Shown: positions 11,003-56,761 of the stretch, in pieces | How positions within the stretch are numbered: the first letter of the stretch is position 1 | Layout: the number at the start of each line of letters is the position of its first letter | Origin: Escherichia phage vB_EcoM-UFV06 | Reading direction: 5' to 3' (one strand) | Sequence record: OP555980.1 | Length of the DNA stretch: 64,000 nt | Notes under the pieces: model-generated | Databases searched by the model: none | Told to the model about the DNA's origin: nothing | What the model saw: the letters and a program-made list of their open reading frames with translations, nothing else | Program-made: the position numbers and the translations under genes

Positions 11003-12713
11003 TAACCTTAATTGGTTTGTTGGTGTTGTTGAAGATAGAATGGACCCATTAAAATTAGGTCGTGTTCGTGTTCGTGTGGTTGGTCTGCATCCACCACAAA
11101 GAGCACAAGGTGATGTAATGGGTATTCCAACTGAAAAATTGCCATGGATGTCAGTTATTCAGCCTATAACTTCGGCAGCTATGTCTGGAATTGGAGGTTC
11201 CGTTACTGGACCGGTAGAAGGAACTAGAGTTTATGGTCATTTTTTGGACAAATGGAAAACTAATGGAATTGTTCTTGGCACGTATGGTGGAATAGTTCGC
11301 GAAAAACCGAATAGACTTGAAGGATTTTCTGACCCGACTGGGCAATATCCTAGACGTTTAGGAAATGATACTAACGTACTAAACCAAGGCGGAGAAGTAG
11401 GATATGATTCGTCTTCTAACATTATCCAAGATAGTAACTTAGACACTGCAATAAATCCTGATGATAGACCACTATCAGAGATTCCAACTGATGATAATCC
11501 AAATATGTCAATGGCTGAAATGCTTCGCCGTGATGAAGGATTAAGACTAAAAGTTTATTGGGATACCGAAGGATATCCGACAATTGGTATTGGTCATCTT
11601 ATCATGAAGCAGCCAGTTCGTGATATGGCTCAAATTAATAAAGTTTTATCGAAACAAGTTGGTCGTGAAATTACTGGAAACCCAGGTTCTATTACAATGG
11701 AAGAAGCGGTAACTTTATTTGAACGCGATTTGGCTGATATGCAACGTGACATTAAATCACATTCTAAAGTAGGACCAGTCTGGCAAGCTGTCAACCGTTC
11801 TCGTCAAATGGCATTAGAAAATATGGCATTTCAGATGGGTGTTGGCGGTGTAGCTAAATTTAACACAATGTTAACTGCTATGTTAGCAGGAGATTGGGAA
11901 AAAGCATATAAAGCTGGTCGTGATTCATTGTGGTATCAACAAACAAAAGGCCGTGCATCCCGTGTTACCATGATTATTCTTACGGGGAATTTGGAATCAT
12001 ATGGTGTTGAAGTGAAAACTCCAGCTAGGTCTTTGTCGGCAATGGCTGCTACTGTGGCGAAGTCTTCTGATCCAGCTGACCCTCCTATTCCAAATGACTC
12101 AAGAATTTTATTCAAAGAACCAGTTTCTTCATATAAAGGCGAATATCCTTATGTGCATACAATGGAAACTGAAAGTGGACATATTCAGGAATTTGATGAT
12201 ACCCCTGGGCAAGAACGATATAGATTAGTTCATCCAACTGGAACTTATGAAGAAGTATCACCGTCAGGGAGAAGAACAAGAAAAACTGTTGATAATTTGT
12301 ATGATATAACCAACGCTGATGGTAATTTTTTGGTAGCCGGTGATAAAAAGACTAACGTCGGTGGTTCAGAAATTTATTATAACATGGATAATCGTCTTCA
12401 CCAAATAGATGGAAGCAATACAATATTTGTACGTGGCGATGAAACTAAGACGGTTGAAGGTAATGGAACTATCCTAGTTAAAGGTAATGTTACTATTGTA
12501 GTTGAAGGTAATGCTGACATTACAGTTAAAGGAGATGCTACTACGTTAGTTGAAGGTAATCAAACTAATACAGTAAATGGAAATCTTTCTTGGAAAGTTG
12601 CTGGGACAGTTGATTGGGACGTTGGTGGTGATTGGACAGAAAAAATGGCATCTATGAGTTCTATTTCATCTGGTCAATACACAATTGATGGATCGAGGAT
12701 TGACATTGGCTAA
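10986..12713 (+). CDS. 5: gp5 baseplate hub/cell-puncturing protein with lysozyme domain
   Basis: 575 aa; internal T4-lysozyme-like domain (MAEMLRRDEGLRLKVYWDTEGYPTIGIGHL); C-terminal beta-helix VxGxxxxx repeats. Confidence 0.9.
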   Translation: MEMISNNLNWFVGVVEDRMDPLKLGRVRVRVVGLHPPQRAQGDVMGIPTEKLPWMSVIQPITSAAMSGIGGSVTGPVEGTRVYGHFLDKWKTNGIVLGTYGGIVREKPNRLEGFSDPTGQYPRRLGNDTNVLNQGGEVGYDSSSNIIQDSNLDTAINPDDRPLSEIPTDDNPNMSMAEMLRRDEGLRLKVYWDTEGYPTIGIGHLIMKQPVRDMAQINKVLSKQVGREITGNPGSITMEEAVTLFERDLADMQRDIKSHSKVGPVWQAVNRSRQMALENMAFQMGVGGVAKFNTMLTAMLAGDWEKAYKAGRDSLWYQQTKGRASRVTMIILTGNLESYGVEVKTPARSLSAMAATVAKSSDPADPPIPNDSRILFKEPVSSYKGEYPYVHTMETESGHIQEFDDTPGQERYRLVHPTGTYEEVSPSGRRTRKTVDNLYDITNADGNFLVAGDKKTNVGGSEIYYNMDNRLHQIDGSNTIFVRGDETKTVEGNGTILVKGNVTIVVEGNADITVKGDATTLVEGNQTNTVNGNLSWKVAGTVDWDVGGDWTEKMASMSSISSGQYTIDGSRIDIG

Positions 12714-18500: not shown

Positions 18501-18622
18501 TATTTGATGCATCTGGAACAACATTTGCACAATTTAGAGATTTAGTTAATAAACGTCTAAAAGATAATATAGGAAATCCAAGAGACCCTGAAAATCCAAC
18601 ACAGGTTAAAATAGATGAATGA
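15524..18622 (+). CDS. 7: gp7 baseplate wedge protein
   Basis: 1032 aa as T4 gp7; synteny. Confidence 0.85.
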   Translation: MTVKAPSVTSLRISKLSANQVQVRWDDVGANFYYFVEIAETKSNSGKNLPSNQYRWINLGYTANNSFFFDDADPLTSYVIRVATAAQDFEQSDWIYTEEFETFATNAYTFQNMIEMQLANKFIQEKFTLNNSDYVNFNNDTIMAALMNESFQFSPSYADVSSISNFIIGENEYHEIQGSIQQVCKDINRVYLMESEGILYLFERYQPVVKVSNDKGQTWKAVKLFNDRVGYPLSKTVYYQSANTTYVLGYDKIFYGRKSTDVRWSADDVRFSSQDITFAKLGDQLHLGFDVEIFATYATLPANVYRIAEAITCTDDYIYVVARDKVRYIKTSNAPIDSDPLSPTYSERLFEPDTMTITGNPKAVCYKMDSIGDKVFALIIGEVETLNANPRTSKIIDSADKGIYVLNHDTKTWKRVFGNTEEERRRIQPGYANMSTDGKLVSLSSSNFKFLSDNIVNDPETAVKYQLIDAVKYEFPREWLADKHYHMMAFIADEKSDWETFTPQPMKYYAEPFFNWSKKSNTRCWINNSDKAVVVYADLKYTKVIENIPETSPDRLVHEYWDDGDCTIVMPNVKFTGFKKYASGMLFYKSSGEIISYYDFNYRVRDTVEIIWKPTEVFLKAFLQNQERETPWSPEEERGLADPDLRPLIGTMMPDSYLLQDSNFEAFCEAYIQYLSDGYGTQYNNLRNLIRNQYPREEHAWEYLWSEIYKRNIYLNADKRDAVARFFESRSYDFYSTKGIEASYKFLFKVLYNEEVEIEIESGAGTEYDVIIQSDSLTEDLVGQTIYTATGRCNVTYIERSYSNGKLQWTVTIHNLLGRLIAGQEVKAERLPGFEGEIIRGVKGKDLLQNNIDYINRSRSYYVMKIKSNLPSSRWKSDVIRFVHPVGFGFIAITLLTMFINVGLTLKHTETIINKYKNYKWDSGLPTEYADRVAKLTPTGEIEHDSVTGEAIYEPGPMSGIEYPLPGDYNTENNNSVFQGQLPSERRKLMSPLFDASGTTFAQFRDLVNKRLKDNIGNPRDPENPTQVKIDE

Positions 18623-19718
18623 TTCAAGTGTTATCTATCGTGCGATAGTTACTTCAAAATTTAGAACAGAAAAAATGTTGAATTTTTATAATTCAATTGG
18701 AAGTGGTCCGGATAAAAACACTATCTTTATCACATTTGGAAGATCAGAACCGTGGTCATCAAATGAAAATGAGGTGGGCTTTGCCCCACCTTATCCTACC
18801 GATTCTGTATTAGGTGTAACTGACATGTGGACTCATATGATGGGAACAGTAAAAGTTCTTCCATCAATGCTTGATGCTGTTATTCCTCGCAGAGATTGGG
18901 GAGATACTAGATATCCGGATCCATACACATTTAGAATTAATGATATTGTAGTGTGCAACTCAGCTCCTTACAACGCTACTGAATCAGGCGCAGGCTGGTT
19001 AGTATATCGTTGTTTAGATGTTCCTGATACCGGAATGTGTTCAATAGCATCTTTAACTAATAAGGATGAATGTCTTAAATTAGGTGGAAAATGGACTCCT
19101 TCTGCTAGGTCAATGACTCCTCCTGAAGGCCGAGGAGATGCTGAAGGAACAATTGAACCTGGCGATGGATATGTATGGGAATATCTTTTTGAGATTCCGC
19201 CTGATGTATCTATAAATAGATGCACGAATGAGTATATTGTAGTTCCTTGGCCTGAGGAATTAAAAGAAGACCCGACTAGATGGGGGTATGAAGATAATCT
19301 CACTTGGCAGCAAGATGATTTTGGATTAATTTACCGTGTTAAGGCAAATACTATCCGTTTTAAAGCATATTTAGATTCAGTTTATTTTCCTGAAGCTGCA
19401 TTGCCGGGAAATAAAGGATTTAGACAAATATCAATAATTACGAATCCTCTTGAAGCTAAAGCTCATCCAAATGACCCAAATGATTTTCCTGAAGCTGCAT
19501 TGCCGGGAAATAAAGGATTTAGACAAATATCAATAATTACGAATCCTCTTGAAGCTAAAGCTCATCCAAATGACCCAAATGTTAAAGCTGAAAAGGATTA
19601 TTATGATCCGGAAGATTTAATGAGGCATTCGGGCGAAATGATTTATATGGAAAATAGGCCACCTATTATTATGGCAATGGATCAGACAGAAGAAATCAAT
19701 ATTCTGTTTACATTTTAA
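18615..19718 (+). CDS. 8: gp8 baseplate wedge protein carrying an in-frame 33-aa tandem duplication
   Basis: 367 aa versus 334 in T4 gp8 as I recall it; the excess is one extra copy of FPEAALPGNKGFRQISIITNPLEAKAHPNDPN. Confidence 0.85.
   Translation: MNDSSVIYRAIVTSKFRTEKMLNFYNSIGSGPDKNTIFITFGRSEPWSSNENEVGFAPPYPTDSVLGVTDMWTHMMGTVKVLPSMLDAVIPRRDWGDTRYPDPYTFRINDIVVCNSAPYNATESGAGWLVYRCLDVPDTGMCSIASLTNKDECLKLGGKWTPSARSMTPPEGRGDAEGTIEPGDGYVWEYLFEIPPDVSINRCTNEYIVVPWPEELKEDPTRWGYEDNLTWQQDDFGLIYRVKANTIRFKAYLDSVYFPEAALPGNKGFRQISIITNPLEAKAHPNDPNDFPEAALPGNKGFRQISIITNPLEAKAHPNDPNVKAEKDYYDPEDLMRHSGEMIYMENRPPIIMAMDQTEEINILFTF
19384..19581. repeat. perfect 99-bp direct tandem duplication (2 copies) inside gene 8
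   Basis: 19384-19482 and 19483-19581 identical base-for-base on hand alignment; flanking bases differ (19383 t vs 19482 g; 19483 a vs 19582 t). Confidence 0.9.
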
Positions 19719-23112: not shown

Positions 23113-24659
23113 GTAACAATACATATCAGCACGTATCAAATGAATCAAAATACGTTAAATTCGATCCTGCAGGATCGAATTTTCCTGACACTGTCACGAC
23201 AGTGCAGTCAGCATTATCAAAAATAAGTAATATCGGCGTAAATGGTATTCCTGATGCAACTATGGAAGTTAAAGGAATAGCAATGATTGCATCGGAGCAA
23301 GAGGTTTTAGATGGAACTAATAATTCTAAAATCGTTACACCAGCTACATTAGCAACAAGATTATTGTATCCAAATGCTACTGAAACTAAATATGGATTAA
23401 CGCGCTATTCAACAAATGAAGAAACTTTAGAAGGCTCAGATAATAATTCATCAATAACGCCGCAAAAACTGAAATACCATACTGACGATGTATTCCAAAA
23501 TAGGTATTCATCTGAATCATCAAATGGAGTTATTAAAATATCATCTACTCCTGCGGCTTTGGCTGGTATAGATGATACTACGGCGATGACTCCGTTGAAA
23601 ACCCAAAAACTCGCAATAAAATTAATTTCGCAAATAGCTCCTTCAGAAGACACAGCATCAGAATCTGTTAGAGGTGTAGTTCAGTTATCAACTGTCGCTC
23701 AAACTCGTCAAGGAACTCTCCGCGAAGGATATGCAATTTCTCCGTATACCTTTATGAATTCTGTTGCAACACAAGAATATAAGGGTGTTATACGTTTAGG
23801 AACACAATCAGAAATTAACAGTAATTTGGGAGATGTTGCAGTAACAGGTGAAACATTAAATGGTCGAGGAGCTACCGGTTCTATGCGTGGGGTAGTAAAA
23901 TTAACGACGCAAGCCGGTATTGCCCCTGAAGGTGATAGCTCTGGAGCATTAGCATGGAACGCAGATGTAATTAATACTCGCGGTGGACAAACTATTAATG
24001 GTTCTTTAAATTTAGATCATTTAACAGCAAATGGAATTTGGTCGCGCGGCGGAATGTGGAAAAATGGCGATCAACCTGTTGCCACTGAAAGATATGCGTC
24101 CGAAAGGGTTCCAGTTGGAACTATTATGATGTTTGCTGGAGATTCAGCTCCTCCTGGTTGGATTATGTGTCATGGTGGAACCGTGTCAGGAGATCAATAT
24201 CCTGATTATAGAAACACAGTTGGAACGAGATTTGGTGGCGATTGGAATAATCCTGGCATTCCTGATATGCGAGGTCTTTTCGTCAGAGGAGCTGGTACTG
24301 GTGGTCATATTTTAAATCAACGAGGGCAAGATGGTTACGGGAAGGATAGACTTGGTGTAGGATGTGACGGAATGCATGTTGGCGGTGTTCAAGCACAACA
24401 GATGTCATACCATAAACATGCTGGTGGTTGGGGAGAATACCAAAGACATGAAGCTCCATTTGGCGCGTCCGTTTATCAAGGATATCTTGGAACTAGAAAA
24501 TATGCCGACTGGGATAATGCTTCATACTTCACTAATGATGGATTTGAATTAGGTGGACCGAGAGATGCCCTTGGTACACTTAATCGTGAAGGATTAATTG
24601 GTTATGAAACTAGACCATGGAATATATCATTAAACTATATTATTAAAATTCATTACTAA
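23109..24659 (+). CDS. 12: gp12 short tail fibre
   Basis: 516 aa (T4 gp12 is 527); synteny between 11 and wac. Confidence 0.85.
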
Positions 24660-42027: not shown

Positions 42028-43445
42028 TTATGGATAGGTATAGATGATACCAGTTTCTAAAGCTGTTTTGTGAATGATGTATCCATTACGCGATTCTTGG
42101 ACATCAACTTCTGGATAGTCTTTCATCATCTTCTGAAGCGTATAACGATGCAAGTAGTACTTACTATCTGGGTCGTCAGTTTTCCAATCTTTACCTTCTT
42201 CAGTCATTTTTTGGATTTCATCCATAACCCACCAACCGCACCAGATATAAGCTGAAGTACGGTGCGGAAGAGGATGAACATAAGGCAATTCACCTTCTGG
42301 TTCTGGAGCAACTTTATCAGTCACTTGAACTTGACCTGTTGTTTTAACTGTTTTGCTATCATAATCAGTTGCTGTAACGACAGCAGTAACTTCAATAGTT
42401 TGACTTCCAACAGATGAGGTATCGACAGTATATACGTTAGTTGACCCTTCTACAGGAGAAGAATCTTTCTTCCACGAGTAAGTAATTTGTGCTTCTTCTG
42501 GAGCATCCGTAACATTAGCAGTAAATGTAGCCGAAGCATCTTGCTGAACGTTAATAGAAGGAGGAGTCAATGTAACCTGTGGATTCATTGTCTTCTTATT
42601 AACTGTCAATGATACTTCATTAGAAGTAACTTCCTTTTCATTGTAATTTTCTGCTGTTACTTGGGCTACGCATTTAATTCTTTTTACTCCACTTGTAGTT
42701 GGAGTATAGCTAAATGTAGAGTTAGTTTCTCCACCAACTTGTGAATCATCTACATACCATTTATATGTAGCAGACGCTCCATCAGGTTGAGAAGCTAAGG
42801 CAGCAGTAAATTGAACTGGGGTTCCAATTACTCCAGCTGAAGGACTAGCAGGAGTTACTGCCAATGTAGTTGTCTGTGTCTTTTTATTAACAGTCAGTGA
42901 TACTTCATTCGAAGTAACGGTTTTTTCATCATAATTTGTCGCGGTTACTTGAGCTACACACTTGATTTTTTTAACTCCGCTTGCGGCAGGAGTGTAATTG
43001 AATGTAGCAGAAGTCGCTTCGTCTACAGGAGAACTGTCAACGTACCATTGATACGTAGCAGATGCACCTGATGGCTGCGAAGCTAAAGCAGCGGTAAATT
43101 TAACAGCTGTTCCAATTACTCCTGCTGGAGGACTATTGGGAGTTACGGCTAAGGTAGTCGTCTGAGTTTTGTTTTTGACTGTGATAGTTGTAGTAGCTTC
43201 TGCTGTTTCAGCTTCAGATTCTGGAACTGTATTTGTTGCAACAACTTTAATAGTCTTTTGACCAGCAGGACCTTTTAATACATAATCAAAAGTTGCTTCA
43301 GACCCATCTTGTGGAGCATTATCTACACTCCAAGCATAAGTAATAGTTCCACCTCCAGTTTCACCACGGGTGCAGCAGTAAACTGCTTGGTTTCATCAAT
43401 AACTCCTGACGGTGCTTTAGGAGTTATATCAACTGTAAAAGCCAT
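42028..43445 (-). pseudogene. hoc: hoc (highly immunogenic outer capsid protein), interrupted by a frameshift near codon 29
   Basis: ATG at 43445 gives MAFTVDITPKAPSGVIDETKQFTAAP then stops at 43325-43323 after 40 codons; rest of Hoc (Ig-like domains and C-terminal ...PYVHPLPHRTSAYIWCGWWVMDEIQ...IIYTYP) is open in another frame from 43392 to 42028 with no ATG before a TTG at 42864; span is 1418 nt (2 mod 3). Confidence 0.7.
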
Positions 43446-54703: not shown

Positions 54704-56761
54704 CTACATTTTGAACTTTTTAGACATTCCGTTGATGTTAACCAAAGAAGCTAAGATTTGAGAAACTTCGTTTTCCTCTTCTTTTGATTCTTCTACAAGG
54801 AATTGATTAAATCCAGCCATTGGACGAACTTCACCAGTTTCCATCAGATGGTCGCCATCATATACTGATTCTTCTAATTGTTCAGAAGGAGGAACGATTG
54901 TACCTTCGATTAGATACTTGTTATAAGCAGTTTCTTTCATCATGTACGTACTTACTTTATTAATCTTCAGTAAAATTCCACGCGGCAAAATAACTTCAGC
55001 TTCGGATGGAAATCCTGATAAATGACCTGGAACGATAACTTTAACTCGTTCAGCTCCTTTAATTACCATACCTACATTAGTTTCAGCGTCTTCATTCGCA
55101 TATGTAGAATGACTACCCATATGCATTAAATCTTCAGCATCAACTGAACCTTCTCCTTCACCAGAAAATACTGCTCCGGAATCATCTAAGGCCATATAAT
55201 TTTTACCATATTCACCGAAGATATTTGGCTTGAGTGAAGTAGATACAAAGTTCTTGAAATAGAACATTTTATTTTCTATATTATGACGTAAAGTTTTAAA
55301 GGTAACTTCTTGCCCACGATAAAGAGTAGTTCCTGGAGGAAGAACTGAACCTTTAGAAAATGCAGAATCCAGCGTCTCAATATGTTTAATAGCTCGTTCC
55401 ATATATTCTTCACGGGTAGAATCAGGTTTACCTAGAAGGAACGAGTTCATTTCAACATATGAATCTGCGCAATAATCTTCAATTACATCAGACTCAGCCT
55501 GAGTTAATCCTTTTGGAGTTACTTCAGTGCTTGCATATTCATATGCCTGAGCAGCAGATTCATCAATTAATTTATAAATTCCATTCATTACAAATTGAAT
55601 AATAGCTGTCTTTTCATCTGGTGTAGCTTTAGAACCTTTAACTAAATCATTGACAATTTTCTTAATAACATCAAAGCTATTAGAAATATTAATGTCAGCA
55701 AGATCGCTTAAAATTTTATCAGTTTTATAATCAAAGAATTCTTTATTCTTTAAATATTCTTGAGAACCTTGATATGTTATATCGCTCTGCAGCTTGATAG
55801 ATGGATCGCGTAAACGTGCATGGGCCAATGCAATATGATTTCGGAAGCTTTCGAGTTCATAATCACTAGATTTAAAACGAGAAGCACTTCTCATACCACC
55901 GATAGCTCCTTTGCTAAAGTTTGAACCAACCTGAATAACGCCAGAGTTCATTGGTCCTTCTGCTTTATATACCGGAACTTTAGATTCAAACTCTTGATAT
56001 TTCTTAGCAGCGAAGCTATCACCCTGAAGTGAAGCATCAACAGTAGAATATTGAGCTTGTGCTGCTAATCGACGACTAATTTTAGTTTTCTGAATAACAG
56101 CTTGATCCGTGCGCTTATCATTTTCTAAAGCAATAGAAGCAGCAACAGCAACAGCTTTAGGAACAGCATTACCTGTTTTAACGTCTACATAAACATCACC
56201 AACCTTTGATTCAACTTTTGTGAATAACTCGGTTGAAATAGGAGGTACACCTGGAATGTCTTCTAAATTGGCATTTTTACGGTAAACCATAATATATGCG
56301 TACTTTTTATCATAATCCCAGATTTCCTTTAAAAGAACATATCGACCTGCTCCTTTAGTACGTACTAAACGGTCAGCAATAACTTGCATTTGCCGAGCAG
56401 CGCCATTTGTTTTACTTTTTAGTACGCGGAATAAGCATGCATCAATTTTATACTGTTTCATTGTTTGAAGAGCAGTATCAAAAACAGCATTAATGACGCC
56501 AATTGGATTTCCACCCAAGTTTTTAAGCTTAACTAATGATAGTTTCTCATTAACACCTATCATTACGATATGCATCATTTTGTCGCCTGGCTTAACGTTT
56601 TTATTCGTATCACCGCCAGAGGTGTATGTACAAAATCTAAATCCAGGAAGCACGCTTTCTTCACCTGCTTGAATAGCAAAAATTTGAGGTATTTTATGCT
56701 TAGGATTTAAGTTAACAACCGGCGCCGAAGCGCCGTCAAATAATTCTGTAATAAGTTCCAT
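54704..56761 (-). CDS. Alt-like mono-ADP-ribosyltransferase, paralog 2
   Basis: 685 aa; N-terminus MELITELFD shared with neighbour; Arg-STS-ExE signature (LYRGQ, FVSTSL, SEAEVILPRG). Confidence 0.8.
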   Translation of the reverse strand: MELITELFDGASAPVVNLNPKHKIPQIFAIQAGEESVLPGFRFCTYTSGGDTNKNVKPGDKMMHIVMIGVNEKLSLVKLKNLGGNPIGVINAVFDTALQTMKQYKIDACLFRVLKSKTNGAARQMQVIADRLVRTKGAGRYVLLKEIWDYDKKYAYIMVYRKNANLEDIPGVPPISTELFTKVESKVGDVYVDVKTGNAVPKAVAVAASIALENDKRTDQAVIQKTKISRRLAAQAQYSTVDASLQGDSFAAKKYQEFESKVPVYKAEGPMNSGVIQVGSNFSKGAIGGMRSASRFKSSDYELESFRNHIALAHARLRDPSIKLQSDITYQGSQEYLKNKEFFDYKTDKILSDLADINISNSFDVIKKIVNDLVKGSKATPDEKTAIIQFVMNGIYKLIDESAAQAYEYASTEVTPKGLTQAESDVIEDYCADSYVEMNSFLLGKPDSTREEYMERAIKHIETLDSAFSKGSVLPPGTTLYRGQEVTFKTLRHNIENKMFYFKNFVSTSLKPNIFGEYGKNYMALDDSGAVFSGEGEGSVDAEDLMHMGSHSTYANEDAETNVGMVIKGAERVKVIVPGHLSGFPSEAEVILPRGILLKINKVSTYMMKETAYNKYLIEGTIVPPSEQLEESVYDGDHLMETGEVRPMAGFNQFLVEESKEEENEVSQILASLVNINGMSKKFKM

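Follow-up and report, generated by a model that had tools for sequence, protein, structure and literature searches.

The 99-bp duplication in gene 8 of Escherichia phage vB_EcoM-UFV06 (OP555980.1) is almost certainly an untrimmed assembler overlap: sequence comparison with three sister genomes points to an assembly artefact rather than to a biological feature of the baseplate wedge protein gp8. The window referred to throughout is the whole stretch of that record that we analysed, 64,000 nucleotides in length. An earlier sequence-only reading of the window had offered three origins for the repeat: an event of very recent date, an artefact of assembly, or engineering. The second of these is borne out by four private duplications of the same 99-bp length, one in each of four records of essentially one genome, while the other two find no support.

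The repeat in gene 8 and its predicted product

In the deposited sequence, gene 8 (18615..19718, plus strand) encodes a baseplate wedge subunit of 367 aa that includes a 33-aa duplicated segment, as identified from the open reading frame and from phmmer and PHROG matches. The first copy of the 99-bp unit lies at 19384..19482 and the second, identical copy at 19483..19581, both on the plus strand; they were recovered from the raw sequence, with Tandem Repeats Finder and in a scan for tandem duplications, and the second copy is also evident from the sister comparison. Tandem Repeats Finder returned a period of 99 with 2.0 copies, 100% matches and 0 indels. In the raw sequence the unit, which runs from ATTTTCC to CCCAAATG, occurs twice with the copies directly adjacent, and the flanks (GTTT on the left, TTAAAG on the right) do not allow the repeat to be extended by even 1 base. 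These results, together with the reading frame, confirm the perfect in-frame two-copy repeat with differing flanks that had been described from the sequence. A chance origin of 99 identical bases is excluded (~4^-99), and the window holds no other perfect tandem duplication with a period of 40-300.

The new junction, at 19482..19483 on the plus strand, joins CCCAAATG to ATTTTCC; its 20-mer is CCCAAATGATTTTCCTGAAG, and the doubled gene encodes the junction peptide HPNDPNDFPEAALPGNK. Microhomology at the junction between G19482 and A19483, sought as a sign of slippage or recombination, amounted to zero, as did the divergence between the copies. Taken alone, these two observations are weak evidence against a natural duplication. 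Dropping either copy gives a gene 8 of 1005 bp, as in the sister records.

With phmmer, the 367-aa product aligns to T4 gp8 (PDB 1n7z, 334 aa; E = 1e-247) in two stretches that together cover all 334 residues: gp8 residues 1-288 come first, followed by query residues 291-367, which correspond to gp8 258-334. The inserted 33 aa thus consist of D plus gp8 258-289, and the lengths given earlier for the two proteins (367 and 334 aa) are upheld by the alignment. The product also matches PHROG 977, baseplate wedge subunit (E = 9e-206). Over residues 1-288 and 258-334 it is nearly identical to the T4 protein, with one substitution (N/D at alignment residue 148), and the genes flanking gene 8 are annotated as T4 genes 7 and 9. 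What sets the UFV06 record apart from T4 gp8 is only the repeat of residues 258-289 and the junction Asp, and this difference we conclude not to be real. The exact 367-aa protein is present in NCBI as UYL84018.1 ('baseplate wedge subunit', phage vB_EcoM-UFV06), the single occurrence returned by an exact-sequence look-up; the gene-position index had no entry for it. Modelled by AlphaFold2 from its sequence alone, the 367-aa protein gave a mean pLDDT of 30.3 and a pTM of 0.18, which makes the model unusable for placing the segment in the fold.

One duplication per sister record

UFV06 is a sister isolate of UFV09 (MZ291552.2), UFV10 (OP555981.1) and UFV11 (OP555982.1), from the same Brazilian laboratory and submission batch, and its accession number directly precedes that of UFV10. 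Over positions 8000-32000 the window is 100.0% identical to all three sisters, except that in each of them the span is 99 bases shorter. Compared with UFV09 over its whole 64 kb, the window shows five differences: the 99 bp, three substitutions (two in gp12, at 24495 and 24501, and a third at 43260) and a 1-bp indel that follows 43367. The three substitutions are the sole point differences found in 64 kb, and the two in the short tail fiber gene 12 hold against UFV10 too. The sisters agree among themselves just as closely. Over 72 kb the identity of UFV10 to UFV11 is 100%, with one boundary mismatch beside the UFV10 duplication, and over 36 kb its identity to UFV09 is likewise 100%, in both cases setting aside the duplications and the record's first base.

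Scanning large parts of the sister genomes for perfect tandem duplications (lower period limit 30 or 40, upper limit 300) revealed that every one of the four records has exactly one such duplication in the stretch scanned, always with a period of 99 and each time in a different place. In UFV06 it lies in gp8 (19384-19581 of the window). In UFV10 it falls at 11793-11991, within a CDS labelled 'ribosyltransferase' that corresponds to a modA-type ADP-ribosyltransferase; in UFV11 at 55601-55798, in a small hypothetical ORF of 273 bp (174 bp in UFV10); and in version 2 of the UFV09 record at 148775-148972, in the CDS of the long tail fiber protein gp34. Each of these four loci is missing its duplication in the other sister records. 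A length that never varies, seen once in each isolate and each time at an unrelated locus of one genome, indicates a fixed software parameter rather than a biological process.

The record lengths tell the same story. UFV09, UFV10 and UFV11 each measure 165,859 bp and UFV06 measures 165,858 bp, that is, 165,859 minus the 1-bp indel; these lengths fit exactly one 99-bp redundancy per record on a unique genome of ~165,760 bp. Moreover, all of the records begin no more than 11 nt from the rIIA stop codon, a common start which implies that they were rotated to the T4 convention. As for their annotation, the product names in PATRIC-annotated sister records such as MZ291552.2 are unreliable and call for caution: T4 early genes that are unrelated to one another bear the label 'thioredoxin' or 'molybdenum ABC transporter' in long runs, for example, and gp10 is called hypothetical.

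We also searched a collection of 50,697 phage records for the junctions. Gene 8 matched 654 of them, and the best 40 matches listed all span 1005 bp, or 1014 bp in the case of phage UFV05, so these records hold a single copy of the 99-bp unit. The sequence-only reading had named a natural allele shared with reference gp8 homologs as the finding that would count against it; among these best 40 of 654 no such allele was found. When a 100-bp query centred on the UFV06 junction was used, 411 records matched, and the best 15 of the 411 all did so in two pieces. Among the gene 8 and junction matches listed, then, no independent isolate or assembly has the same gp8 junction. The UFV10 junction was matched in one piece by its own record only, and so was that of UFV09 (E = 2e-56, against 1e-23 for the rest). 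Among the matches listed, none of the four junctions turned up in a second record.

Origin of the duplication

How could a fixed parameter write 99 extra bases into a gene? T4-type genomes are circularly permuted, UFV06 is a Tequatrovirus, and 99 is a routine k value for assemblers. From such a genome, a short-read de Bruijn-graph assembler would give a loop. In linear form, the contig made from this loop begins and ends with the same k bases, an overlap of 99 bp if the largest k was 99. If the contig was subsequently rotated to the rIIA start, the old end would have been joined to the old start; left untrimmed, the k-base overlap would then show up inside the record as a perfect tandem duplication of 99 bp, wherever the assembler had cut the circle. 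Copy 1 (19384..19482) would in that case be one of the two terminal k-mers of the original circular contig. Assembler, k value and rotation step are all inferred here, as is the reason why the cut fell where it did. The literature searched did not yield the assembly method used for the UFV phages; the paper on optimising UFV09 production gives no assembly details, and the Platon paper contains no explicit statement on k-mer overlaps.

The position of the unit's 3' end offers a clue to why the cut would have fallen in gene 8. Alignment and search place a 9-bp repeat tract there, CCAAATGAC followed by CCAAATG (encoding PNDPN), at 19467..19482 and again at 19566-19581 on the plus strand. In UFV05 (OP572230.1, ~1584-1608) the CCAAATGAC unit occurs three times, encoding PNDPNDPN in a gp8 of 337 aa, and the 9 extra bases equal the last 9 bases of the 99-bp unit at the same spot. 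The three-unit allele is also found in the Yersinia phages PYps11T and PYPS2T and in Escherichia phage HP3.1. Its presence in these unrelated phages identifies it as a natural short-repeat length polymorphism of the gp8 loop, and for the same reason a partly trimmed overlap remnant is the less likely account of the 9 bases in UFV05. Read from left to right, the two-unit and three-unit alleles agree up to the final base of the duplicated 99-mer and part at precisely that point, which makes this 99-mer a branching vertex in a k = 99 graph. It is very unlikely that the end of the unit coincides by chance with the sole indel site in ~166 kb. A minor three-unit subpopulation, or carry-over from a co-sequenced UFV05 library, could have branched the graph at this 99-mer, and such branching at the polymorphic repeat probably placed the cut inside gene 8.

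Against the untrimmed overlap stands, first, the possibility that the duplication is real: illegitimate recombination or slippage during replication would very recently have doubled the 99 bp of gene 8 in tandem and in frame, and gp8 would tolerate the addition as an extension of its surface. T4 is known to generate tandem duplications, the sequence stands in a public 'complete genome' record, and the 3' boundary falls in the PNDPN loop, which naturally varies by 3 aa; since natural variants of this loop accommodate 3 additional residues, a real insertion where the segment ends would in itself not be absurd. The reading frame is kept as well, a point in favour of a real event that does not discriminate, given that 99 is divisible by 3 and any 99-bp artefact would stay in frame. 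On the other side, each of three sisters with the same genome has a perfect 99-bp duplication of its own at an unrelated locus, and independent biological events would neither share a length nor come once per isolate. To this are added the junction without microhomology, the undiverged copies, the lack of the junction in any other of the 654 gp8-containing records (among the matches listed) and the occurrence of the exact protein on one contig. A genuine duplication of this kind is therefore highly improbable. Equally hard to credit is its more specific form, in which the UFV06 stock would carry a 33-aa duplication (gp8 258-289) that is only days to weeks old and is tolerated by gp8 although this wedge protein is essential, and the equal-length duplications of the sisters would be unrelated artefacts.

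A second possibility is an artefact of another kind, such as an error of manual editing or contig joining, or the outcome of a population mixed at the 9-bp repeat, where two contigs, for instance, might have ended and been merged by hand. It would fit the end of the unit exactly at the polymorphic repeat and the 9 extra bases, equal to the unit's last 9, that UFV05 from the same laboratory has at that spot. Yet the exact figure of 99 recurs at three sister loci where no comparable boundary repeat was noted, which argues for a fixed parameter k rather than for ad hoc joins, and we give this possibility hardly any weight. Were it correct, the practical conclusion would be unchanged, the duplication being not biological either way. 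An insertion engineered or planted into the window is rejected, as the exact 367-aa protein is in NCBI.

Short repeats born of assembly have been met in other phages. Internal repeats of ~79 bp arose in short-read-only assemblies of przondovirus genomes and were refuted by Sanger sequencing (PMC10438801). Like the UFV06 duplication, they are short and perfect and lie inside deposited or draft phage genomes; unlike it, they were found to have no read support, concern a phage group with defined terminal repeats and have another length, and their artefactual nature was tested experimentally rather than deduced from sequence (PMC10438801). Another precedent is a 127-bp overlap, also a perfect direct repeat of a routine k length that occurs once per circular or circularly permuted assembly, at an arbitrary position that varies between assemblies of the same genome. 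The UFV06 overlap differs in being internal instead of at the record ends and in measuring 99 rather than 127 bp; rotation to rIIA would have put it inside a gene, where it mimics an in-frame tandem duplication.

Consequences for the records and the hoc region

If the duplication is an untrimmed overlap, the true UFV06 gp8 is the ordinary 334-aa protein, and the repeat has no biological significance. The suggestion that the additional 33 aa alter baseplate assembly, or form a tolerated surface loop, is thereby left with nothing to explain. The implications are instead for the databases. At least four public records described as 'complete genome' are flagged here for errors of this type (UFV06, UFV10, UFV11 and version 2 of UFV09), which give false or lengthened products: the 367-aa gp8 in UFV06, the modA-type ADP-ribosyltransferase in UFV10, the small ORF in UFV11 and gp34 in UFV09. 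Such false proteins have spread into protein databases, as in the case of UYL84018.1. A simple screen for genome scans would be to take circular or permuted genomes that have been rotated and look for a single perfect tandem repeat of a typical k-mer length (55, 77, 99 or 127); a repeat of this sort should be presumed to be an untrimmed assembler overlap unless reads show otherwise.

The record of UFV09 also has a history of its own. In MZ291552.2 most proteins keep their QWT accessions, and only about 15 of the ~98 CDS in the range of the window have new UXR accessions. A protein is given a new accession solely if its sequence has been altered. All three of the loci that differ from the window (gp8, gp12 and an ORF of the hoc region at 107170-107358) are among those with new accessions, and hence the sequences there were different in version 1 of UFV09, plausibly in the manner that UFV06 still shows. 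This suggests that the depositors revised the gp8, gp12 and hoc-region sites in UFV09.

The head decoration gene hoc itself (42028-43445 of the window, minus strand) looks broken. Upstream there are only short ORFs, and the sole match to the Hoc-like PHROG 1149 in the region is that of a 278-aa ORF, which starts with TTG and corresponds to the C-terminal part of this PHROG. Relative to version 2 of UFV09, the window has in this region the substitution at 43260 and the 1-bp deletion after 43367. The broken hoc gene could be a real pseudogene or reflect further sequence errors.
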